A stretch of DNA of 63,094 bases, filler included, from Phoronis australis (lineage: Eukaryota; Animalia; Phoronida), in the NCBI GenBank assembly GCA_002633005.1. It is 8 parts of 8 records of this genome, joined end to end, with 100 filler letters (N's around TTAATTAATTAA, not from the genome) between each part and the next. Parts side by side here need not be neighbours in the genome. Positions count along the whole stretch, not along the records: positions 39,329 to 46,059 come from NMRA01002125.1; 7 more parts are not named here. One strand, 5' to 3'. Both the position numbers and the translations under genes were made by a program. Of the stretch, positions 29,380 through 57,056 are shown one piece after another (the first letter of the stretch is position 1; each line of letters begins with the position of its first letter). A model generated the notes under the pieces. The model made no database searches, was not told the DNA's origin, and saw only the letters and a list, made by a program, of their open reading frames with translations.

Positions 29380-30230
29380 TTAGGATGTCAAAATTATAAT
29401 TACAGAATGCCTTAGCCACCCAACTAACTTTCTTAATGGTCAATTCTCCGTCATTCTTGGTTATAAGAGAAAAGTACTGTGACAAATTGAACTATAAATA
29501 GAATTTATAAGTACATGGACAAATTGATTCACCCCGATCAGACGTCATTACCTAAAAGGTGTATTAGCCAAAATATTCGATTAGTTAAAGATTTGATGAA
29601 ATATTACAAACAAAATAAACTTGATGGCCAAATTATATTCCTGGATTTCAAGAAAGCATACGACACCTTAAATTTGGATTTATTGTTCAAAACTTTAAAA
29701 GCCCTCAATTTTGGACAAGGGGTAATAAGTAAAATAAAAATTTTGTATAACAAAATCTCATCCTGTGTGTTAAATAACGGATTCACCACTCGGTACTTAC
29801 GAGGCTTACGACAAGGTGATCCCCTGTAAAGTCCCCTTTTTGTGTTATGTGCAGAACTTATGTCACATTTCATTAGAAAGAATTATTTTCATGGTTTAAA
29901 AATGTACAATAATGAAATCAAAATAACCCAGTACGCGGAAGACACCATTTTGTTCATTCAAGACGAGAATTCCGGAAAAGAATGCTTTAAATTTTTAAAA
30001 CTATTTGGAAATAATTCTGGCTTACATTTAATTCCTGAAAAGTGCGAAGGTTTATATATTTCTGCCCGAGGTTGTGCCCATTGTCTTCAAAAAATGTACA
30101 ATATCTCTTGGCCACGGAAACCTATAAAAAGTCAAGGACTATATTTCGGTCAAATTGGCAAAGCAGTGGAACAGCTAAATTACGGTAATAAAATTCAGAA
30201 ATTAAAAGATCACCACGGGGAGGATTGATG
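29380..30230 (+). mobile_element. L1/Tx1-clade LINE reverse transcriptase pseudo-ORF
   Basis: LIHPDQT, LDFKKAYD, SSCVLNNG, RGLRQGDPL*, ITQYAEDT, with an in-frame stop and deletions. Confidence 0.9.
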
Positions 30231-31627: not shown

Positions 31628-31884
31628 ATTTATCTCATCTACATGTGTTGTTTCACTGCAAACTAGCTTCGGTATCGCTTCGCAGTTAGCGCATATAAAA
31701 ATCATTTAAGTATTAAATTATTTTATGTAAGCTATACTGCATCGTCCTCATTATCTTGTCTCATCTACATGTGTTGTTTAACTGTAAACTAGCTTCGGTA
31801 TCGCTTCGCAGTTAGCGCACATAGAAATTTAATGACTACCGCCTCAACGGAATGCGAGCAGGTCAAGCTCTATTTAACACGTGA

Positions 31885-32100
31885 TACTCTTACTGGATTG
31901 CACAGAAAATTATTTTCGGACAACTTAAAGTCAAAGTTTCCAGACATTGAAATTGCACTCAAAGTATGAAGGTGACAACTGTCCATCTTCGCAGCAAAAT
32001 GGGGAAACAGCGTTTAAACTGGCTGTCGCTCATCTGTATGGAAAATGAAATTCTGGACTCTGTTAACTTTGATTCCTTAGCAATTCTCCTAAAAGAAAGT
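31885..32100 (+). mobile_element. hAT transposase C-terminal dimerisation-domain fragment (copy 1)
   Basis: NLKSKFPDIEIALKV..., then HLRSKMGKQRLNWLSLICMENEILDSVNFD (hATC-like). Confidence 0.8.
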
Positions 32101-33905
32101 TCGCAAATGCTTGCCTTGAATTCCCGGGCCCTACATTGGCGGTTCAAAAATGGCCAAATTCAAAGTATGATAAAATGAGAATCAAGCCGTTTAGTAAGTC
32201 AAAAATAGGACATACCGGTATGAATTCCATTTCGATCACAAAATAAATCAGAAAACCAGAACACGTTTCAAAATTAAATCAAAACAATCGATTTCGCAAT
32301 TCAGTGAAACGGATGCTCCAAGTCATTAGACATAATTACCAAAGTACCGGCGATATAAGTCTCAATATGCCTTAAAAAGCAATTTAGTTAACAATTAATA
32401 TCTCGCTGTTCCGTTTCCGCATGCGTGGTTCGTAGTCCTACCGTCTGATTGTCATGTATCTTGAAAAGCACTTCATGAATTAATACTGTTAAAAATTTAA
32501 CCTTGCTCGTTAATTATTGACGTGCACTACTTTCAGCATATCGGTAAGTCTATTGATAAATACACGTGTACTTGTTGATGCACAATTTACGTTTTTATTG
32601 CTATGAACATTTGGTTAATATAAAAGTGGCCCCACTAAACTGCTGTGCCGGAAGCCTTGTATTGTCAAAGAGACCCTGGAGTTTTTGTTCATTTTCAGAG
32701 GATATTAAATTTTCTTCAAAGGGGAAAATCCCAACCCGAGGATTGCTTACCCACCTTTACAGTTCAACATGTTATATAACTTTTGTAATTACTGTTATAC
32801 CACAATATTAGCGTCAAATGGCAGATACAACCGTGTAATAACCCATAAAGTTATCTCACTAGTGAGATAACATTTTGGCGGGAAACCGAGGCCGGATTCA
32901 AACCCGGACCTCGCGAGTCGCCGACTTTACCACTACACCACTCAGCAGCTGACGTCATCGAACGTGAAAATAGAATACTTAAATGAGCATGCGCAACAAT
33001 CGCATGTTCAGCAAAGGGCATTGCACCGAGATTTATACGCTATGAAAAATAAGACGCATAATTTCCATAAAAACGATATTTTAATTCAGTGAAATTTTTC
33101 TCTCGTGTTCTCTCACTTGTAAATCACCGATCTCCAAATTGAATGCGGGTATCGTGTCGTCGGGATCCTTTGACTTGAGCATTATAGTCAGTTACTAGTG
33201 GTGACCTACTTTAGCAGACGATATTTTCCCGGTCGAAGCTTAGCGTGATAAAATGTGTAGTAAGCTATAAACCTTAATTTATAGATTCACTTTATTTCTA
33301 TTTCGATTAAATTTTCAATTGGTTTTGACTATAAGCATTATTTTACAAAAATAGCTCGACTTTTCTTAAAAGGTCACGAACTCCGACCCCGGGCCTCTGA
33401 CATAGAAAGTAGTTACAAAGCCGAGGCGAGTAGAGAAAGGTAGATCGATTCATTGCAATGTTTCTCGTTCAGTATGTGGTATAAATAGATTATTACATGT
33501 TCTCAGTCGTTATTCCCCTTATCTAGAGCCCTCGTGGATTTTGGAGAATTATCACCCTCGGGGCTAACGTCCCTCGGGCGATAATTCTCCAAAATCCACT
33601 CGGGCTCTAGATAACGAGGGATAACGACTTCGCCATGTAATAATCTATATTTATCTCATCTACATGTGTTGTTTCACTGCAAACTAGCTTCGGTATCGCT
33701 TCGCAGTTAGCGCATATAAAAATCATTTAAGTATTAAATTATTTTATGTAAGCTATACTGCTTCGTCCTCATTATCTTGTCTCATCTACATGTGTTGTTT
33801 AACTGTAAACTAGCTTCGGTATCGCTTCGCAGTTAGGGCACATAGAAATTTAATGACTACCGCCTCAACGGAATGCGAGCAGGTCAAGCTCTATTTAACA
33901 CGTGA

Positions 33906-34121
33906 TACTCTTACTGGATTGCACAGAAAATTATTTTCGGACAACTTAAAGTCAACGTTTCCAGACTTTGAAATTGCACTCAAAGTATGAAGGTGACAAC
34001 TGTCCACCTTCGCAGCAAAATGGGGAAACAGCGTTTAAACTGGCTGTCGCTCATCTGTATGGAAAATGAAATTCTGGACTCTGTTAACTTTGATTCTTTA
34101 GCAATTCTCCTACAAGAAAGT
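33906..34121 (+). mobile_element. hAT transposase dimerisation-domain fragment (copy 2)
   Basis: Duplicate of 31885-32100. Confidence 0.8.
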
Positions 34122-37100
34122 TCGCAAATGCTTGCCTTGAATTCCCGGGCCCTACATTGGCGGTTCAAAAATGGCCAAATTCAAAGTATGATAAAATGAG
34201 AATCAAGCCGTTTAGTAAGTCAAAAATAGAACATACCGGTATGAATTCCATTTCGATCACAAAATAAATCAGAAAACCAGAACACGTCTCAAAATTAAAT
34301 CAAAACAATCGATTTCGCAATTCAGTGAAACGGATGCTCCAAGTCATTAGACATAATTACCAAAGTACCGGCGATATAAGTCTCAATATGCCTTAAAAAG
34401 CAATTTAGTTAACAATTAATATCTCGCTGTTCCGTTTCCGCATGCGTGGTTCGTAGTCCTACCGTCTGATTGTCATGTATCTTGAAAAGCACTTCATGAA
34501 TTAATACTGTTAAAAATTTAACCTTGCTCGTTAATTATTGACGTGCACTACTTTCAGCATATCGGTAAGTCTATTGATAAATACACGTGTACTTGTTGAT
34601 GCACAATTTGCGTTTTTATTGCTATGAACATTTGGTTAATATAAAAGTGGCCCCACTAAACTGCTGTGCCGGAAGCCTTGTATTGTCAAAGAGACCCTGG
34701 AGTTTTTGTTCATTTTCAGAGGATATTAAATTTTCTTCAAAGGGGAAAATCCCAACCCGAGGATTGCTTACCCACCTTTACAGTTCAACATGTTATATAA
34801 CTTTTGTAATTACTGTTATACCACAATATTAGCGTCAAATGGCAGATACAACCGTGTAATAACCCATAAAGTTATCTCACTAGTGAGATAACGATTTGGC
34901 GGGAAACCGGGACCTTGAGTTAGCTGGTCGCCGACCTTAACCACTGCACCACGCAGCGGCTGACGTCATCAAGAGTGAAAATAGAATACTTAAATGAGCA
35001 CGCGCAATAATCGCACGTTCAACAAACCGCATAGTACTGTACTTATACGCTANCGATAATTCTCCAAAATCCACTCGGGCTCTAGATAACGGGGGATAAC
35101 GACTTCGCCATGTAATAATCTATATATATCTGTAGTAGTTTAGTTTGTCATAATATATATGACCTTTTATCTCAACTACACGTGTTGTTTCACTGTAAAC
35201 TAGCTTCGGTATCGCTTCGCAGTTAGCGCATATAAATACTATTTAAGTATTAAATTATTTTATGTAAGCTATACTGCCTCGTCCTCATTATCATATTGTT
35301 TGGATTCTCAGGTCAGTGACCCTCTTTGTTATACGATTATTGGTTCAATTGTACCACGTGATCTCTTTGTCTTGTCGCAACACTGGGCCATCGTCCACAA
35401 TTCTCTCCAACTTTCATTTTTCACTCAATTTCTCTTTCCCTCCCTCCCTCAAACCAATTTTCTTTCTTTCTCTGTTATTCTCAAATTTCACATGTCGCTG
35501 TTCCAGTGTTGCTGTTATGCTTCTGCATATTGTTTCTTAACTTACTATTCACCACTTGTGTATACCTTCATTGGAGGCAGATTGTCACCCACCTTTACAG
35601 TTCAACATGTTATATAACTTTTGTAATTACTGATATCTGTAGTAGTTTAGTTTGTCATAATATATATGACCTTTTATCTCAACTACACGTGTTGTTTCAC
35701 TGTAAACTAGCTTCGGTATCGCTTCGCAGTTAGCGCATATAAATCTATTAATCCCAGGCACTAGCGAAAACCATAAGGCCAAAGAAAAATTCCGCAGACA
35801 AATGCAATACGCTGGGTGCTTAACAGTTTCAGCCCACTTATTGGCCATCCAAATGTTGACCAATTGTTTTTTTAATGCAAAACAGTGCTGGATCAATGTT
35901 AATGCTGAAATTTTTGGTTCAGGCATTTTGGATATATTTGAAGAAAATTAAATTACTTGAATTGATAGAGAGTGGTCAACAATAACATAAAATATTGAAT
36001 TTATTTCCCTATATTGCATTGTTACATAGCATGGCACAATTAAAAACAAAAACAAGATACCGATCAATTAAACGCAAACGTAGCTTGGGTATTTATTTGT
36101 TTATCAATGGTTACAGAAGCCTGTTAAAAGTGAGAAAAAAGTTGAAATAATATGACATTGGGTAATTTATTAGAACAAGTGTATTGAGGTCTAATGATCA
36201 ATTGTCAAATCAAACGTTGGATTTTATTCAGAAAAAGACGAGGTTTGCAGCCACTTTAAAATTTGTGTAAGACAGCCTCTACGAATTTATCAGATGACAC
36301 TTGTTTTCTATCTTATACAACACGATTTACATAATTTCCTAAATGTTTTGAAGCTTATCAAAGGGAAAAGTTATGATTAGGGTAAAGGGGATCGAAAGTG
36401 TCTGCTCTGTAGACAGATTTAGATGTTGCATAAGTTTTCACTTGGTATCAACAATCTCTTTTATCATGAAACAAGTTCATTTGAGTGGCGGATACATAAT
36501 ATTGAAAGTTTTTTCATGCACAGTCAATGAGTTACGCACCAATTAATGTTTTCGGCTATGGGTTGTACAGCCTTTGTTAAACTAACGATGTTGTGAATGG
36601 GTTGGACGCGCGACGTCATCCTTATCGGCCGTCTGACCCACTCGTAACATCAATAGTTTGGTAAAGGCCGTAGCCGAAAATGTTTTAACATTTTACGTAC
36701 CAGTTAAAACTGATACGTAAATAAGAGACTGTGTATGAAGAACCTTCCCATATTAGTCTCTCACCTAACTTGTTTTCGTTTGTAGCGTTTATGCTCAGCC
36801 CAATGTTCGTAAAAGCATGTAATGAATTCACTTTTTCTAAAATAAGTTTGTCGGACTAAAACACCAATTGTCTCACCCCACTATATAAGGGAGTTTGCGG
36901 CGTAATTGTGGACTCCTAAACCCTTAATGCTCAGAGTCGAGTTTGTTGTCACTGTAAATATCTGGAAAATCTCCACAGCTCTACACTAATACTGGTTTGG
37001 GGAGGAAAAAAGAAAATGAAACGAAATTTATCTTGACCCATCTAATGACACCGAACGGTGCAAGAAAATAATTAAACAAAATACACATGGAACAGTGGTT

Positions 37101-39328: not shown

Positions 39329-39420
39329 GACACATGGGCACAGTGCTGTTGGATGTAAATAAATGACACATAGGCACAGTGCTGTTGGATGTAAATGACA
39401 CATGGGCACAGTGCTGTTGC
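39329..39420. repeat. Short ~33-37-bp tandem repeat (gacacatgggcacagtgctgttggatgtaaat)
   Basis: Three copies visible. Confidence 0.85.
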
Positions 39421-39952
39421 AGTTTTACTAGCTATTGTCTAGTTTGTATTGTTGACTATCCTGGATCACAATTCTGCTTGAATGTCATTCTTATGCCAAC
39501 ACAACATAACACGGAATTTAAGATGTTCACAAAACTATAGTTTGTGGTCAGGTGACATGACTGACTCTTCGAAGCAAATCCACTGTGTTCAAACACATAA
39601 AGTAAGATCTATTCATAGTTTGACTTTGAAATGCGTGTCATTTTGCCCTGTCCTGTCCACTGCAAAGTAGAGCACCTCCGTGTCAGTTCCAGTTATGGCC
39701 ACCAGGGGGTACTGTAGGATCATTTGGTGCTTGTTGATCTGTAAGGTTATGTGGAGGATTTTTTATAATTAGACATGGGTCTACCTAGTTTATGTCTCAA
39801 GTAATGCAAAAATAAATGGTGAACATTCTTTAAACGACAGATATTTGCAAATATAATTTTTTTGTTGACGGCCATTTCCTGTTCTTACCTTGCAACTTCC
39901 TGGGCTAGGGAAGACTCTTTGTGAATTACTTTAGTGGCTGTCGTATTTTCAG

Positions 39953-40105
39953 GGGTGGGATGTGCAGTGTGCGGTCACCTTCGGCTGTGTATGTCAAGTA
40001 ATGGCCTCTATTATGGTGTTCCCAGTTGTGACAGTTGTCGCAAGTTTTACCGCAAGTACTTGTCCACCTATGGCGACACCAAGACAGAATGTGTCAACGG
40101 GGATG
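39953..40105 (+). CDS. KMT2A: Trithorax/KMT2A exon: first half of a nuclear-receptor-type C4 zinc finger (CAVCG...YYGVPSCDSCRKFYRK...ECVNGD)
   Basis: ttttcag| ... G|gtgagt, 153 nt, phase 1-1, in frame with the following exons. Confidence 0.88.
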
Positions 40106-40540
40106 GTGAGTACACCTTCATTGGGTAATTAGAAGCTAAGTGAAATGATTTACGGTAAGTGAATCATTCTCACAGGCTTCTTACCACTCTGTAAATAAAG
40201 TCCGGACTTTACAACCTGTCCAAGAGTTTGTCATGTGTCACCTCATGTAGAGTGAACAGTGTCGGGTCCAAATTATCACAATAGAGCTTTATTTTCATAG
40301 TCATGTTTCGTTTTCTTGATACGTTAAAAGCAGTAAGTTTGTCAATGTTATTGTGCCTACGTTTGCCTCAAGTGTCTGTGTGGAAGTCTAATTTTAGCTC
40401 ACATTCTGTAACGATGTGTGCTAATGAAGACATATGTTTTTAGGCAACTGCAATTGTTATATGGGTGGATGTAGCCAGCTTCGTGTTCACCACCATCATT
40501 ACATTTGTTTGTGTGCTGGTTTCGTCTCAGTCAACTTGCA

Positions 40541-40845
40541 GTGTCTTGTTATAGTTGGACACTCAGGAATATTGTGGGGTTGTGTCTTGTTATAGTTGGA
40601 CACTCAGGAATATTGTGGGGTTGGGTCTTGTTATAGTTGGACACTCAGGAATATTGTGGGGTTGTGTCTTAATATAGCTGGATACTAATAGTTGGACACT
40701 CAGGAATATTGTGGGGTTGTGTCTTGTTATAGTTGGACACTCAGGAATATTGTGGGGTTGTGTCTTGATATAACTTGATACTCAGGAATATTGTGGGGTT
40801 GTGTCTTGATGTAGCTTGATACTCAGGAATATTGTGGGGTTGTGC
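40541..40845. repeat. 41-bp intronic minisatellite (~7 copies)
   Basis: gtgtcttgttatagttggacactcaggaatattgtggggtt repeated. Confidence 0.95.
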
Positions 40846-41489
40846 TGCTAACACTTGTCGATTTTCATGCATATTCAATGCACAGCATCCCACGGCCATT
40901 TCTTTTTTGACTGATATTTGTACATTGTTTGTATTGCCAAAACGACTTGACTTATTTTGTGGATTTTTTGCTGAAAGTGAAAGTTATGTTGGAAGTGCAG
41001 CTGCATGAGGGAGTATTCAGACATATGGGACTAACATATCACTCCTTACTGACAAGGGATTGTGCTTGCAGTAGATTTTTTCAAGTGATTCGAATACTGC
41101 AGCACCTTCGGTTAAGCTTTTCAGTTTTCATGGAAATATTTTTGGCTTGCCAATTACTGGTTAAATCTTTTGACAGGTTTCCATGAAACTTGAACCTAGG
41201 GTACTACATGCAGGAGATATCCTAGCATCAGATGATATTAGGATGTATTGGACTTTTCTGTAGCTCCCCCTGTTGGCCATTATTTTCAGTGCCTCAATAA
41301 TCCAAACATGTATGTATGGCTGGTCTGTTAAGTGTTTTTACTATTAACGTAAACTATTGCAAGTCGTAACAGTAATTTAGTGTACAATCTTAAATGTGCT
41401 GTACGTGTAGAATAGATAAGTGAGATAAAACCATTTCAAACTTGATAAACTCCATGCAGTTGAACAGGCTGTGTTTTCCTGTGTTACAG

Positions 41490-41783
41490 GCAAGTGTAGT
41501 GTTGTAGAGGGAGGTGGCTTTGTCTGTTCATCTTGTCGCTTTAACAAGTGTCGGATAGTCTTCCCAAGTCCAGACAAACTGAAGCCGGCCAAGTCGGAGG
41601 ATAAGCGTCACGTGAAGGAATGGTGGAATGTGTCAAGAACAGAGGCGAATCTCGGCGATGGCAGTGAACATGGTGGCACTTCGCCACAGCTGCCCAGCAC
41701 CCCTGTTTCACAGGGAAAGTCAAAAGGGGGCGCACAGACCTCGCCTGACTCACCTGCCAGTAGTGTGGCATCTGCCTCCTCAG
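41490..41783 (+). CDS. KMT2A: Trithorax/KMT2A exon: second half of the C4 finger (KCSV...CSSCRFNKC) plus Ser/Pro-rich linker
   Basis: ttacag| ... G|gtattg, 294 nt, phase 1-1, open frame. Confidence 0.88.
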
Positions 41784-42362
41784 GTATTGAATTAACAATA
41801 CTTGTCATTTCATTAGAAGTACACAAAACATACTGTGAGTGGCCTAAATGAAATAATATCATGATCCCACTCGACCTTATTCTACTTATCGACTGAGAAC
41901 GAAGGCATTCATCCCTTATACTTCAATACTTCAAGCTCTTAGTTTCTTTGATTATTTGGTACATTTTTTAAATTCTTCCCCCAGACTTTATGTGGCGTAT
42001 CACAACCTGTAGTGTATGTACTTGCGCGTGATGCTATAAGTTTACTTTAGTAAAAAACAGTATTAAATGTAATGATTTATGACTTGAAAAGAGATAACAA
42101 AGATGACAACAACAGTAATTGTGCACTGAACTATTTACATTTTTTTGAAAATAATTACCATCTATATTCAACATTTTAGTTACCATCTATATTCAACATT
42201 TTGTAATTCATGTCCCAAAGCCATGTGTAAAACAATGCGGACTAGGAAATTGTACTGGAGCCGTCTTGCTTTCTAGATAATGTTGTTTTGTGACCCATCG
42301 TCTTCGTTATATTCATTGTATATTTTAGTGTTACCACTTGTCTATTCTCCATTTTCGTTTAG

Positions 42363-42512
42363 GTCGAGGACCACGGATCAAACATGTGTGTCGTAAGAAA
42401 GCCATAGCTCTGGGCTCACCAGCTGTGTTTGATTCTAAACCCGAGTTCCATCTAAGTGCACTACCAGACACGTACAAGCATAAAATTATAGAAAAGGATG
42501 CCAGAGAAAAGG
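42363..42512 (+). CDS. KMT2A: Trithorax/KMT2A exon with the RGPRIKHVCR motif
   Basis: tttag| ... G|gtgagc, 150 nt. RGPRIKHVCR..A.ALG..AVF......LSALP is diagnostic of MLL1/MLL2/trx. Confidence 0.95.
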
Positions 42513-43033
42513 GTGAGCAATTACCCTCTTTCACTCCACCATTGACTTTTTTACGCTTGCCTCCTTGTTTTTGGATTTCTCTTTGGATTTCTTTGGTGAA
42601 TTTTGAAATTCATGAAATGTGGAGCCATCAATGCAGTCTTATTTTTATGTGCCCACATATTTATATTTGTATTGCAGTCTTGAGCCTAATATCAAGACTT
42701 TGTCTTGCTAATGTTAATAGTATGTCTTACTGAGTATTGTCAACATGTAGCATTGTTAAAGAAAAAGTCAAGTTGCACTTGCAATATAGTTTATGAGTTG
42801 GTTCCCTGGTTTTACTGAAGTGTTTTACATGTAGACCCGTGTCTAGTTACTGATCTAGGCACATCTTTACGTACATATAGACTCATAGATCTAAATGATC
42901 CAAGCACATCTTTATATATTGAGACTCATAGATTTAAATGTGCACATGTTTCGTAGTTGTGCTGTGCACTGCTTTCAAGCAATGCGCATGTTTGTGAAGG
43001 TCGCTGTATTTTGTTGAGCATACTGTGTTACAG

Positions 43034-43214
43034 AAGACAACATGGACGAGGTGCCTATCTGTGAACAAGCAGGTCAAGATGTGAAGGTCAAGGTCGGGCT
43101 GTCTGCTGATGAAAATGCACCCAGGTTACCAAATGGCAGGCGCAAGCGACGAATGCGTTGTAACCAGTGTAAAGGATGTAACACACCAGATTGTGGCACC
43201 TGCAGAAATTGTCT
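43034..43214 (+). CDS. KMT2A: Trithorax/KMT2A exon: N-terminal part of the CXXC domain (RRKRRMRCNQCKGCNTPDCGTCRNCL)
   Basis: ttacag| ... CT|gtaagt, 181 nt, phase 1-2, CxxCxxC-x4-CGxCxxC pattern. Confidence 0.95.
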
Positions 43215-43476
43215 GTAAGTAAACAAGTGATGAGATTGAATGGAATCAATGGCACTCTGGCATATTCCTTCAAATGAAAGTAGCATATCGTTACTATGAT
43301 TATTGAGTTTTTATTTCAATTGTTTACCTCTCTCAAGTCCGTCGTTATACTTCCCTTTAGTGCCCATACCAGTTGTTCTCTGCAGTTTTACTTGTCTATT
43401 TTTGAATATGATCTTTTAACGCAATGTCAGTGAACCTAGTGCAGGCTCTGCTTCTTGACTGTGCTAATCATTTCAG

Positions 43477-43524
43477 AGATAAACCAAAGTTTGGCGGACC
43501 AGGAACCATGAAACAAGCCTGCGT
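43477..43524 (+). CDS. KMT2A: Trithorax/KMT2A CXXC alternative exon A (DKPKFGGPGTMKQAC)
   Basis: gctaat branch-like site, tttcag| ... |gtaagt, 48 nt, phase 2-2. Confidence 0.9.
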
Positions 43525-43573
43525 GTAAGTTGAGGTTGAATGTCATGCTAAAATATCGTGCTGAATTTTTCAG

Positions 43574-43621
43574 AGATATGCCAAAATTTGGCGGACGGGG
43601 TGTGTTAAAACAGTCGTGCAA
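43574..43621 (+). CDS. KMT2A: Trithorax/KMT2A CXXC alternative exon B (DMPKFGGRGVLKQSC)
   Basis: tttttcag| ... |gtaagt, 48 nt, phase 2-2, paralogous to exon A. Confidence 0.9.
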
Positions 43622-43875
43622 GTAAGTTGGAGTTTGGATAGCTTAGGTTGTAGCTTTTTGTCTTGGTTCTTTTGATGCTTGGTTTTGGTCATAACTCGCT
43701 TTCACAGGTGTGTGTGTGTGTTTGTGTGTGTGTGCTATAGTTTTAGTGCATATTTCTGAACATGTTGAATAGTGACTCAATCTGTCGTCGTTTAGTCACT
43801 GTCACCCACTTGCCTGTTTTCTTGTCATGGAACCCTCTTTATCTGAGTGATGCAATCAAGAGAGACACCCACGTG

Positions 43876-43983
43876 CCAATCACCCAATCACAAAGCCTCC
43901 CATTTGTCACATATCCAATCACAAAGCCTCCCATTTGTCACATATCCAATCACAAAGCCTCCCATTTGTCACATATCCAATCA
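43876..43983. repeat. 31-bp minisatellite (ccaatcacaaagcctcccatttgtcacatat)
   Basis: Just over three copies visible. Confidence 0.9.
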
Positions 43984-44435
43984 TGGAGCCAATCATTTGT
44001 GAGTATCCACAGAGCCTCCTGCCTGCACACAAGACTTCCCTGCTTTTAACTTACTGAGAACTGTTAAACTGACGAATCTTATTACTTATGTGGTGTTTCA
44101 AAAATTTAACCATACCTCAATATTGTGGATTTCAGAAATTCTAAATGAGCTTTTTTGATTTAACCACTTATTATTTTCAATTGAAACTCATGAAGTCAAA
44201 ATATTTGACTTATTACTGGCATACAAGTTTGTTTTATTGCAACAGTAACTGTTACATTTGGCGTATAGTGTCATTTTTAAAACCAATCTTTGTTTATAAT
44301 ACATTGCACAGTATTTTAGTCTGATTACTTGTGATTGTTAATTTAGTACAATTTCATCACAGAGCATGTCAGGCTAATTGGACTGGTGACCTGGATTTGA
44401 CCTAATTACAGTGCCTGACATACCTATTGTTTTAA

Positions 44436-46059
44436 AGGAGCATGCCACCCAAAAACAAAATAATTTTTATCAATTTAGGTCGAGTAGTTCTGCTCCATAC
44501 CAGCACGTACGGTTGCGTTACCTGACACCTGACGGCAGACGGAGGTGTTGAAATTATCCAATGATGTAATTGGTTTCACACGCAATCTGTTCAGCAGTTC
44601 ACAACACGGGTAACTGGTGTCAGCTTATCGCTTGAATTCATCGTTTAACACCAATAAATCATCAAACTTCGATGTAAAACCCTTAAAAATACACCGAGTT
44701 CTTATAAAAACGTGTTGTTTTATTTAGCTGTTTCGGATTTATTGGTATTTGGACACACCGTAGCCTCCAAAGTTCGGCAGGACAATAAGGTCCGTAGAAG
44801 GAGTTTGGGGTCTGTTCGGAGATAATTTCAAAGTATTTTCCGTGAGATATGGACAGGATAACCCAGATCTGTGTTGTTTAGACTTGTGATTTTTTGAGTT
44901 CTAAACACAAAATGCTTGTTATCCTGGCCAGTGGCTCAGAGCCCGATCAGGCCCGTCACGGCCGGCCGGATTGACTCGTTATCCCGGCCAGTGGCTCGCA
45001 AACTGATCAGACATCACGAACATAAACCAGCCATAGTTGGAAACTAAACTTCCAGTCAAGAAAATACTATACTAGTGAGCCAAAGTGTTGTGCACGTGAT
45101 TATGTTGGTGAATTACCCACGAAACTGCAAATCTACTTTCTCGTCGGGAGCCGCGAATTTAGGTTCCGCTTTAGCCACAGCACCGTCAGGGCAGAAGTTG
45201 TACATTGACAATCATTATTTTTATAATGTAAATGTAAATAAAGACTCCCCTTACACCAGGCCTTGGGGTGGAAATCAACTGAGTTGTTTCACAACAGTTT
45301 CTGCCAGCAAACACTAAATTAGCATGAGCTCACACGGCCTTGGTGTCCCGTCAATTAGTTTTACTGCACCTAAAGCCGGTAACGCAGTGATTTATTCATT
45401 GCTGGCTTCTTAAATCATTTGCACTCACGAACACTCCAAAGGCATTACAAATTGCATCTAATGAGGCAGACTTCGTTTCAGTTTTATATAAGTATTGGTT
45501 AGGGTGAGAATAATTCATTTTGAAACAGAAAGCTCAGTAATAAACATCAACATGGCAACTCGCAATCCCGACTTAGACGAGAGATCATCAGTCGATCCCT
45601 ACGAAGACTTAGCAGGTGGATCATTAAGTTTCACAGGCTATCAATTCGAACAGGAATACAGTGATGAAGAAATACTAGAGAGGCGCGTGAACAAGCTCAG
45701 ACAACGGAACGTATGGATTAGATAGTTATTTGGTAAGCCGGCATTCGCCAGGCACTGTCGACGACTGCAGGCCACAGACACGGAGATGTTTCACGGCCTC
45801 ATACTTGCTTTTTATAGGGTACTTTTCATTCTTCACTACCGCGAGCCACTTCCTAAGCATTTCGGTCTCTCGAGGAAGTGGAAAAAAAAACGATATACCC
45901 GCTTTTCTCGCAGCTGCATAGTTCGGACAAGCGGGAACGATGCACCGTAACATAGCGGCATTCACTCTGCAGATGACCCACTGACGTCGCTAGCGTCGTT
46001 TCTCACCTTCCTCACAGGTTAACGCGACACCTCTTGGCAAGGTAAGGTCGACCGTATGC
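44436..46059. mobile_element. Internally deleted Kolobok element in a trithorax intron, with convergent KolX-like (+) and THAP (-) ORF stubs
   Basis: TTAA|aggagcatgccaccc left end. Plus-strand stub 45552-45725 has ...GYQFEQEYSDEEILERR. Minus-strand stub 45726-45965 has MLRCIVPACPN...ISFF.PLPRE..LRKWL....LRVC (THAP). The right end is cut by the contig break. Confidence 0.75.
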
Positions 46060-47951: not shown

Positions 47952-48050
47952 TCGGGCATGACACCGCTGCACTGTGCAGCACTGGAGGGTCATACACAGA
48001 CAATGAAGTGCCTAGTTGAACACAGCGCCACAGTGAATGTCACTACTAAG
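47952..48050 (+). CDS. Ankyrin-repeat exon 2 (SGMTPLHCAALEGHTQTMKCLVEHSATVNVTTK)
   Basis: catag| 99 nt |gtaatt, phase 0-0. Confidence 0.92.
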
Positions 48051-48436
48051 GTAATTAATGACACACAGGTTGTTTGGTTGATGTAGTTGTTCGCACAAAC
48101 GATGTTTAAAACTGAGGACGACAAACTACGTGAACTTAATATTTTCACAATTTAATGTCCCTAAACAATGTCAAATTAAATGTCGTCTGCTTTCCGTTCA
48201 TGAACCACCAAAGCTGTGTAGACTGGTAGAGACAATGCATGACTTACCTGTGTTACCTGTTGTTTGGTTGCAAAACTTAGCATTTTCCAGTTGATAACAT
48301 TACAAGTATTATAACATCTTAGAGGGGTCAGCAATATTTCATTTATGTCACCTTACAAGTTCACTTTCCTCCGTGTATGTTAATTAGCTCTAAACGTTGA
48401 TCGTCCATTCACACATCTCCATTATATATTACATAG

Positions 48437-48535
48437 GAGGGCTGGACACCGCTGCACTGGGCAGCACTGGGTGGTCATACACATATAGTGAAGTGCCTAG
48501 TTGAACACAGCGCCACAGTGAATGTCACTACTAAG
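48437..48535 (+). CDS. Ankyrin-repeat exon 3 (EGWTPLHWAALGGHTHIVKCLVEHSATVNVTTK)
   Basis: catag| 99 nt |gtaatc, phase 0-0. Confidence 0.92.
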
Positions 48536-48914
48536 GTAATCAATGACACACAGGTTGTTTGGTTGATGTAGTTGTTTGCACAAACGATGTTTAAAACTGA
48601 TGACGACAAATTTTGTTGATGATTTCACAATCTAATATCCCTAAACAATGTCAAATTAAATGTCGTCTGCTTTCCATTCATGAACCACCAAAACTGCGTA
48701 GACTGGTAGAGACAATGCATGACTTACCTGTGTTACCTGTTTGGTTGAAAAACTTGGCATTTTCCAGTTGATATCATTATAAGTATTTATAACATGTTAG
48801 ACGGGTCAGCAGTGTTTCATTTATGTCACCTTATAAGTTCACTTTCCTCCGTGTATGTTAATTAGCTCTAAACGTTGATCGTCCATTCATACATCTCCAT
48901 TTTATATTACATAG

Positions 48915-49013
48915 GAGGGCCGGACACCGCTGCACTGTGCAGCAGGGTATGGTCGTACACAGATAGTGGAGTGTCTACTTGAACACAGCGCCACAGTGGA
49001 TGTCCGTGATGAG
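48915..49013 (+). CDS. Ankyrin-repeat exon 4 (EGRTPLHCAAGYGRTQIVECLLEHSATVDVRDE)
   Basis: catag| 99 nt |gtaatt, phase 0-0. Confidence 0.92.
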
Positions 49014-49549
49014 GTAATTAATGACACACAGCTTATTTGGTTGATCTAGTTATTTACACAAACGAAGTTTAAAACTGATGACGACATATTTTGTTGATTT
49101 TTTTCACAATTTAATGCCCCTAAACAATGTCAAATTAAATGTCGTCTGCTTGTCATTCGAGATTTGATTGAGAATCGCCAAAGTTGCGTAGACTGGTAGA
49201 GACAATGCAGTGTGACTTACCTGTACAGGTAAATGATATGTAAGGTAATTAAAGTACACCTAATTCGTTAGAACTAAACATACATTACACTGTGGTTATC
49301 CAACAGGTTACAGCGCATAATTACTACCGGTGTTACCGCCCAGTAAGGAGAAACGAAACACTAACCAGGCTCTGTTGTTTTGTTCTTAAACGTAACATTT
49401 CCCTAATGACATCGTTACAAGTATTAGCACCTTGGAGGAGTCAGTAATGTTTCATTCATGTCACATTGCAAGTTCACTTTCCCCCGTGTATGTTAACTTG
49501 CTCTAAACGTTGACCGTCCATTCACACATCTCCATTATATATTACATAG

Positions 49550-49648
49550 GATGGCCGGACACCGCTGCACAGTGCAGCACTGTGTGGTCATACAGCCGTC
49601 GTAGAGTGTCTCCTCCAACACGGGGCCAACGTGCATGTCCGGAATAAG
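49550..49648 (+). CDS. Ankyrin-repeat exon 5 (DGRTPLHSAALCGHTAVVECLLQHGANVHVRNK)
   Basis: catag| 99 nt |gtaatt, phase 0-0. Confidence 0.92.
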
Positions 49649-50159
49649 GTAATTAATGACACACAGGGTGTTTGGTTGAACTAGTTGTTTACACAACGAT
49701 GACTAAGCTGAATCATTCGGTGATTTAATTAATCAATCACCATTTATGATTTCATTGAAAATTGGATATTTCTCCTTGCACGTGAAGTAACGTTCACGCG
49801 ATTTTAAGTAATTAGAAACAGTTTTCAGGTCACATGGAGGTGTACAATGAGTTTGTTATTTACTTGCATTTTCATAGCACTTACTAACTGAATGTTGCTC
49901 TGTTGTTATATATAACATCAAGTTGTCATATTTAAAATTCTCTTTTCAATGCACGACTACAACACATCAGACAAACATTTAAGAAATTTTGCTCAAGTTG
50001 TGTGCGAGTTTAAATGTCAGGTTGTGGTCACCCTTTGTTGATCCACCCACGTCATGAATATGCAACTGATGGTGAAGTTTTGAATTTGAAAAGTATAAAA
50101 CGTGACGCCCTGTTGAGCCACCCATTTCGCTATATATAATGCTGACCAACTTGCTGTAG

Positions 50160-55363: not shown

Positions 55364-56636
55364 CTAATTACACGTTATTGTTCCCGGCAAGCACCAGTCC
55401 TTGTCTACTGCAGGTATGCTGAATCGAGCACAGAACTTAGAATATCTATCCATATCCTTCGCAGTTATGCGAACGACATACTGATTGAATTCTTTTTTGT
55501 TCAAGTAACTTCTTGCTTGCGAGTCCACGCAGAGTGCAGAGGGCCCCTTGTCACAAAATGAATCAGGCAGACGAAAATGTCTCGCAACGGCTATGCACGC
55601 GCTGTCCGTGTTCTCCACTAAGTCTTCATATCTTATTGCAGCAACGCCGAGCACTGACTGCCATTGCATGTATTCCTCGCAAAGACGATGTAATTTCAGC
55701 AGTAGTAGTTCATCGAGAGGCAAATTGTATTTCAATTTTTCTTCTTCGCTCACCCAGAAATACATCTGACTTGTTCGCTCTAGGAAATCACACACGCGTT
55801 TGCTAAGACTCAGACTTAGTGCTTGCCTAATTTTGGACCTTTTGAGTTTATAAACGAATTGATTACAACGCAAATACATTTTCATCTGGGACGTTAGATT
55901 GTTAGTGACCTTCCCGCGATACACAAACCCCAGCATTATATTGGGAACCGCAGCGGAAACGTATTCATACAAGTTCGTACCGGAGCTAAATTTCATAACG
56001 TAAACTGCCGGCTTTATTTTACGTGGTTTGCACAGTATTCTAATTGAAGATCTCACAAGTTGTTTTGCTTCGGATTTCCTTGATGTTGACTAACGCATGC
56101 GGCTCACTGATTGCCAATGCTTTTGGAATTTTCTTCATCATTTGAATCAGCAGAGTTGAGCCACACCGCCCTAAACTTTCCAACGCAACAACAGAAGACT
56201 CCGGGTCACCGAGAACGTCAGCAAGGTGATTGAAATGCACCAGCGGCATGATGATCATTTGTTTTGCAGAGGCAAATTGTGCCAGGAAAAGGAAAGGGCT
56301 TACTCGAGAGTTGAACACATCGATTCCTGGCAGAGTGCGAACGAAAATCGCTTCCCCATCAGCTGTAACGGTGTACAAAGACACGTTGTCTGCAAGGACA
56401 CATTCCGGGTGTTCAAAATGGCTGTGTGAAGTAATGAACTGTCGCCTGCTGGGCACACAGTGTGCTTCGTTAAAGCATCGAAAATGGATGTTGAAGACTT
56501 GAGCAGATATTTCATACTTTAGACGATTACTTTCCAGATGTGTTTGTAGTCCAGATAACATCCAAAAGAGGCGCTGAAAAACAGTGTACAACTGCTGAAG
56601 GGCAAGAAAACACAACCACGCCCAGACTTGCGACAT
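55364..56636 (-). pseudogene. Intronless P-loop sulfotransferase-like gene (~420 aa) with one frameshift near 56050-56070
   Basis: ORF 56040-56636 has SLGRCGSTLL..M..IP.A.AISEP (PSB-loop-like). ORF 55364-56056 continues LVRSSIRILCKP...IRYEDLV...DSQ. Either a pseudogene or an assembly indel. Confidence 0.7.
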
Positions 56637-57056
56637 ACTCCAATTAACCAGTACATGTACGTCTTCAAATCACTTGATCACCTTTTGCTGGACTGACGCG
56701 CAGAAACACAATTCCGAGAATGCTGTCGGCACGTGTTTACAAAAACTTGCCCGTTAATAGTGACACGAACGGTAATACATTCCCCGGCGGTTTGGTCTAG
56801 TCAAATACTTGTGTCCTTACGCCAGAAATTGCTGTTCAAGTCCGGGCGCGGTACTCGCTGACAAGTGTGTCTTTTGTCCTATCCGAAAATGAATATACCA
56901 TAATGCAGGTTCGGGGATCCGTCATTGAGACTCCGCGACATCATTTGTTTTCAAGTAGCGCCCTCTGTTCCTTTGCCATTCTTGCCTCATTAGCGTGACT
57001 AGCCTGTTCGACCGTGACAGTTGACTTAATAATTTGAAAGTTGAGCCTCCCAGGTT

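Follow-up and report, generated by a model that had tools for sequence, protein, structure and literature searches.

The trithorax/MLL gene of the phoronid Phoronis australis carries two adjacent 48-nt exons, here called A and B; both are intact, and either would complete the CXXC zinc finger of the protein in frame. Judged from sequence, the best explanation is an old tandem duplication of the micro-exon for the DNA-contacting tip of the finger, whose copies would be spliced in one at a time to give fingers that differ in their hold on DNA or in a protein contact. As a joint figure for this whole explanation, we estimate a probability of about 0.55. The pair itself is real and conserved, and apparently no one has described it in this major chromatin regulator. 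Developmental genes are kept active by trithorax/MLL, a protein linked to unmethylated DNA through its CXXC finger.

The window, the whole stretch of 63,094 nt analysed here, consists of contigs strung together with N spacers, and includes this gene on a contig at positions 39329-46059, which ends before the next exon is reached. By sequence comparison, the upstream exons identify the gene as trithorax/MLL (Table 1); the tip peptides alone are insufficient. The nuclear-receptor-type (C4) finger, the RGPRIKHVC exon, and the N-terminal half of the CXXC finger all match a bivalve MLL protein (P0122) by tblastn, in the same order. This ordered match, with the C4 finger and the RGPRIKHVC motif upstream of the CXXC finger, bears out the earlier note, which had assigned the gene to trithorax/MLL. 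The nuclear-receptor-type finger is present in the window (Pfam zf-C4; P0122 match), as in the invertebrate orthologues of trithorax, KMT2A, and KMT2B. C4 and CXXC fingers in one gene (window 39935-41783) occur likewise in some mollusc MLL proteins (PF00105 on P0122, P0143, and P0145). The zf-CXXC score of exon 43034-43214 falls below the Pfam cut-off because the exon encodes half a domain. With the RGPRIKHVC exon as query, there was one match among nine candidates. The HMMER search found no close relative (best identity, 67%; best named match, a bivalve), and the protein atlas gave generic zf-CXXC clusters only, all below 0.9. PHD fingers, FYRN/FYRC, and SET had no tblastn match in the window; the contig stops at 46059.

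Table 1. Trithorax/MLL exons and the spacer intron, by position in the window.
Feature	Position	Strand	Evidence and remarks
trx/MLL exon, first part of nuclear-receptor-type (C4) zinc finger	39935..40105	+	5' boundary uncertain; Pfam zf-C4 E 8.9e-05, above cut-off; tblastn vs bivalve MLL P0122 E 1.2e-07
trx/MLL exon, remaining C4 finger and Ser/Pro-rich stretch	41490..41783	+	phase 1-1, 3' end read from sequence; tblastn vs P0122 E 1.6e-04; splice sites
Exon with MLL1/MLL2/trx RGPRIKHVC motif	42363..42512	+	tblastn vs P0122 E 8e-10; named KMT2A-like proteins among HMMER matches
Common exon, CXXC finger N-terminal half, six cysteines, phase 2 end after CGTCRNC	43034..43214	+	Pfam zf-CXXC E 8.6e-04; best PDB match KMT2A 4nw3
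Tip exon A, DKPKFGGPGTMKQAC(V)	43477..43524	+	KFGG, K-Q, seventh zinc cysteine; best PDB match KMT2B 4pzi E 2.1e-04
Spacer intron, 49 nt	43525..43573	+	candidate branch adenosine at 43551, +27 from donor; branch use putative
Tip exon B, DMPKFGGRGVLKQSC(K/N)	43574..43621	+	14/15 identical to sole tip exon of loci L010/L018/L031

Elsewhere in the window, positions 47960-49650 are occupied by tandem units of ~480 nt, each with a short exon; we take these short exons to resemble an ankyrin repeat. Positions 29491-30228 hold a broken reverse-transcriptase fragment (RVT_1, E 1.6e-06, below the cut-off). A block at 31686-34882 is duplicated with a period of ~2020 nt, and identical candidate exons recur at that offset. 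Positions 55364-56669 contain two open frames on the minus strand, 241 and 209 aa long, that overlap and match nothing in Pfam.

Exons A and B are homologous exons in the usual sense: adjacent, equal in length and phase (2-2), and encoding the same protein segment. Each is flanked by ttcag on its 5' side and gtaagt on its 3' side, and exon A begins 262 nt after exon 43034-43214. The earlier note had described two paralogous 48-nt, phase 2-2 exons with canonical sites and 49-nt spacing, and its coordinates, sites, and peptides proved exact. The copies are identical at 32 of 48 nt (67%), with 16 nucleotide differences. Merged haplotypes were rejected as the source of the pair, given the 67% identity between copies and the presence of such pairs in other assemblies. 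When both splice sites and the CXXC-tip residues are demanded, a pattern search has two matches in the window, exons A and B, and none in 100 shuffles. Each exon has the type-1 ZF-CXXC signature (KFGG, then K-Q or R-Q). None of the six amino-acid changes between A and B falls at the eight family-defining positions (p ~0.003, a value biased by the exons having been noticed for those residues). The top PDB matches of exon B are FBXL19, KDM2A, and KDM2B, not KMT2A. Seven zinc cysteines are visible in the window; the eighth is expected in the next exon, which one metagenome locus (L003) has. No x-R-x-C exon was found within the 2438 nt that follow exon B, up to the contig end at 46059.

Metagenome contigs were scanned with a pattern for the 48-nt tip micro-exon, which gave 32 loci, many of them redundant. 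Three contain a tandem pair: L003, L020, and L027, with spacers of 55, 56, and 70 nt, respectively. L003 and L020 are 98% identical and so represent one organism or close kin; the first copy in L027 was found by a looser scan. In L003 the two tips lie between an upstream and a downstream exon, with phases that agree throughout, and these flanking exons match the MLL protein of Mya arenaria (E 9e-24 and 1e-15). The L027 contig has no flanking exon, so a trithorax/MLL identity for that locus is only putative. Of the 12 codons shared by the two L003 copies, 6 show synonymous differences; the second L003 copy is identical to the second copy of L027 at 42 of 48 positions, versus 33 of 48 for its own neighbour. 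The divergence of the L003 and L027 copies points to age and purifying selection. The first L027 copy (L027:392-439) has K-K in place of the conserved K-Q and looks similar to KDM2-type tips; decay is one possibility, a weak-binding form another.

The remaining 29 loci have a single tip copy, with no second copy even when the splice-site requirement is dropped: the tip is A-like (PGTS) in 10, has Met-2 in 18 (most of these B-like), and is of another type in 1. Eleven of these loci contain both flanking exons and are thus truly single; many animals therefore need no second tip. A tree was built from 20 distinct 48-nt exons, after removal of L020 and 15 redundant single-copy loci as identical rows; it is poorly resolved for the most part, with a star on 1 of its 17 branches. 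None of five groupings was rejected by AU tests (p 0.087-0.27), which thus do not distinguish one ancient duplication from several. Sequence shared by the flanks of the two copies exceeds chance in L003 alone (13 nt; none of 2000 shuffles); the values are p 0.26 for the window and p 0.05 for L027.

Annotated proteins provide a further example. The KMT2A-like RefSeq isoforms X1-X4 of Ptychodera flava (XP_070548619-623) form equal-length pairs, X1/X3 and X2/X4, whose differences comprise three residues only, at tip positions 3, 10, and 12, the last being K or R. Equal length and differences confined to the segment encoded by the window exons would be the protein signature of either-or exons, an exon structure read back from proteins. 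However, the two Ptychodera tips are 13/16 alike, are unlike exon A or B, come from automatic annotation, and may reflect a separate duplication. One tip each is found in the isoform sets of Branchiostoma, scallop, abalone, spiders, and vertebrates (for the large clusters, among the 15 members listed of 21, 26, and 236). Mollusc entries include both P-type and R-type tips. The conservation in other animals supposed at the outset therefore holds in part of the sample: tandem pairs in 3 of 32 metagenome loci (two of them near-identical) and the Ptychodera isoforms, the pair not being universal.

Exons A and B are, with good probability, used mutually exclusively, such that each mRNA would take one of them and encode a whole CXXC finger. 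The earlier note had proposed as much, and we grade it likely in view of the tandem pairs elsewhere, the Ptychodera isoforms, and the database proteins: among 237 with the N-terminal half of the CXXC finger, none is without the tip and none has two adjacent tips. (In P0152 and P0153 the whole domain is repeated, 96-104 residues apart; these were set aside as unrelated to tip doubling.) Double inclusion and double skipping both keep the reading frame, so mRNA decay cannot enforce the choice.

The 49-nt spacer is likely too short for removal, which would cause the exons to be spliced in one at a time. GCTAA occupies spacer positions 23-27, placing a candidate branch adenosine at +27 from the exon A donor and -23 from exon B, although the match to the YTNAY consensus is not full. 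Candidates in the other pairs lie at +30 and +31 (L003 and L020, in a good CTGAC, the L003 adenosine being at +30) and at +18 to +49 (L027); all candidate branch points in the four loci are thus less than 50 nt from the donor. The steric threshold applied to this distance is ~50 nt (PMC5740500, PMC7969005), so the very short donor-to-branch distance that had been claimed holds for the candidate at +27. The spacers stay at 49-70 nt; flanking introns range from 262 to >2400 nt. A steric cause, resting on candidate branch points, is plausible. It is less than certain because Caenorhabditis elegans excises introns down to ~40 nt (PMC4165533) and because the candidate branch site at +27 departs from the consensus. 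The nematode introns also favour a different reading, in which the spacer is excisable, and mRNAs sometimes include both exons (in frame, with 16 extra residues) or skip both to give a non-DNA-binding regulatory isoform; because 48 nt keeps the frame, the decay pathway would not remove such mRNAs. Against this stand the 237 proteins, none with a skipped or doubled tip, and the shortest downstream intron among the single-copy loci, 108 nt; we consider the reading very improbable. RNA folding of 43400-43720 gave nothing above shuffles (z 0.68), and so indicates no competing-structure mechanism there.

RNA reads from three raw-read runs (X1-X3) and one contig set, all under the same species label, were placed on 42300-46050. 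Mean depth in run X2 was 2.47 in the 126-nt bin of exon A and 1.07 in that of exon B, with zero in the bins on either side, and the exon-bin reads are on the strand expected for a plus-strand transcript. Runs X1 and X3 had no depth over exon A; in the exon B bin they gave 0.33 and 0.38, about one read each. These exon-bin depths (0-2.5) are no higher than those of some intronic bins (42552-42677 in all three runs; 44064-44189, at 4.29, in run X1). They are compatible with expression of both exons, at low coverage. Conceivably only one exon is used at this locus and the other is silent or decaying, as the empty exon A bins of runs X1 and X3 might suggest and as the loss of the conserved Gln from the first L027 copy, perhaps by decay, might illustrate. 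We find this improbable in the face of run X2, with depth in both exon bins and none beside them, and of splice sites and all eight defining residues that are intact in both exons despite 16 nucleotide differences. The 15 splice joints listed of 30 all lie within a repeat at ~44430-46050, which swamped read placement, and none of those listed is at exon A or B. This highly transcribed repeat family (window 44430-46059), in the intron after exon B, has depth in the hundreds on both strands, with reads mostly 90-95% alike. Plus-strand depth of up to 4.3 at 43812-44315, in run X1 alone, could reflect pre-mRNA, repeat, or an unrecognised exon.

What would the swap change? Within the tip, KFGG supplies rigidity; CpG is read by the x-K-Q tripeptide, in which x makes its contact through the backbone (PMC3685328). 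The earlier note's attribution of CpG contact to KFGG is thus not supported; that motif is structural, and x-K-Q is the reader (PMC3685328). With KFGG aligned to K1178-G1181 of human MLL1, A and B differ at positions 1176 (K/M), 1182 (P/R), 1184, 1185, 1188, and 1190. Tip position 2 (1176) is Lys in A and Met in B; tip position 16 (1190) is V in A and K or N in B, as set by the first base of the next exon. (A supposed intron within the human K1190 codon found no confirmation; the tabulated human coordinates continue with no jump.) K1176, K1178, and K1190 make electrostatic DNA contacts, and K1176A compromises binding, according to supplements of PMC9249231. Human R1182P, from gnomAD, is entered as 'no effect' in supplement file 9 of the same source, which undercuts PGTM versus RGVL as the likely switch put forward in the note (PMC9249231). 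Tip positions 2 and 16 appear to be better candidates.

Because K-Q is identical in A and B, both predicted forms would bind the same dinucleotide; because the differing lysines grip the DNA backbone, the swap is likely to act on affinity or chromatin residence and not on CpG specificity. It would alter affinity for or residence time on CpG-rich linker DNA, or a protein contact, and thereby the placement of H3K4 methylation. On the residues involved, we lean slightly towards a functional difference of this kind between the A and B forms. The effect on affinity may be slight: Met at position 2 is compatible with function, being the sole form in 18 single-copy loci and occurring also in the KDM2A, KDM2B, and FBXL19 fingers. 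Nor are the differing residues constant across lineages; both L003 copies keep Lys at position 2.

Such variation gives some weight to a reading in which each mRNA takes one exon and the fingers are nonetheless functionally equivalent, the duplication being easy, rendered harmless by the short spacer, and kept under selection by part-time translation. One tip suffices in 29 of 32 loci, A-like and B-like tips are each the sole tip elsewhere (10 and 18 loci), the A/B-type differences are lineage-specific, and tandem exon duplication affects 7-17% of metazoan genes, often near neutrally (PMC3342872). Yet at least two lineages have kept their pairs despite deep synonymous divergence, and position 2 is Lys in all 22 distinct named MLL tips but Met in exon B. 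Equivalent fingers are a possibility to be kept in mind, if the lesser one.

The earlier note had suggested that the switch could tune CpG or flank specificity, or affinity. A change of base specificity would concern CpG flank preference or tolerance of methylation. The exons do hold the whole major-groove loop; the K/R difference at position 12 in Ptychodera alters a direct base reader; and swaps of the MLL1 and MLL2 CXXC fingers change genomic binding (PMC8401916). But K-Q is the same in A and B, the preceding residue binds by its backbone (PMC3685328), and the flank preference of CFP1 arises from R213, outside the tip segment (PMC3072069). A change of base specificity between the A and B forms is unlikely. 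In view of the same R213 result, R-Q versus K-Q was given up as a determinant of flank preference (PMC3072069).

A close comparison is with vertebrates, whose KMT2A (MLL1) and KMT2B (MLL2) have the same domain and tip (PDB 4nw3, 4pzi). Exon A shares P at tip position 8, T at 10, and V at 16 with KMT2B; the residues common to exon B and KMT2A are R at 8 and possibly K at 16. In vertebrates each tip has a gene of its own, and all isoform sets examined show a single tip per gene, whereas the window has two tips in one gene. The P/R split at position 8 between the vertebrate paralogues is not strict. Two catshark KMT2B-like proteins (P0119, P0120) have R at 8 like KMT2A, with T at 10 and V at 16 like KMT2B. 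A bolder proposal is that, where invertebrates have one trithorax/MLL gene, splicing has repeatedly produced the two kinds of tip that vertebrates obtained when the gene split into MLL1 and MLL2 (A MLL2-like, B partly MLL1-like), and that a regulated switch retargets H3K4 methylation in development. The effect of MLL1/MLL2 finger swaps (PMC8401916) gives this proposal an opening, and we regard it as doubtful.

Splicing of this kind is known already, both in FOXP1 (PMC11701043) and as recurrent tandem exon duplication (PMC3342872); its case in this host gene is apparently undescribed. The mutually exclusive FOXP1 exons 18 and 18b likewise swap part of a DNA-binding domain in frame (PMC11701043). 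FOXP1 differs in being a transcription factor, in changing motif preference, and in having a switch shown to be cell-type regulated (PMC11701043); the window pair resides in an H3K4 methyltransferase, leaves the base readers unchanged, and is known here from sequence. OGDH exons 4a/4b and alpha-tropomyosin (PMC7969005, PMC4165533) resemble the window pair in a branch point within ~50 nt of the upstream donor (a candidate one here) and in exons of 3n length, so that decay cannot police double inclusion. OGDH has a distant branch point in a longer intron (PMC7969005), whereas the window, L003, L020, and L027 pairs have a whole spacer of 49-70 nt. Literature searches at title and abstract level, mainly of open-access papers, found no description of a trithorax/MLL CXXC tip exon pair, in keeping with the earlier note, which knew of none; the main text of PMC5740500 has no mention of KMT2 or CXXC.

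With the splice choice limited to a 16-residue tip, exons A and B would provide natural, otherwise identical protein pairs for testing the role of the loop residues in affinity and targeting. Such tip pairs bear on why the MLL1 and MLL2 fingers are not interchangeable. They bear also on how H3K4 methylation may be steered in invertebrates with patchy DNA methylation.
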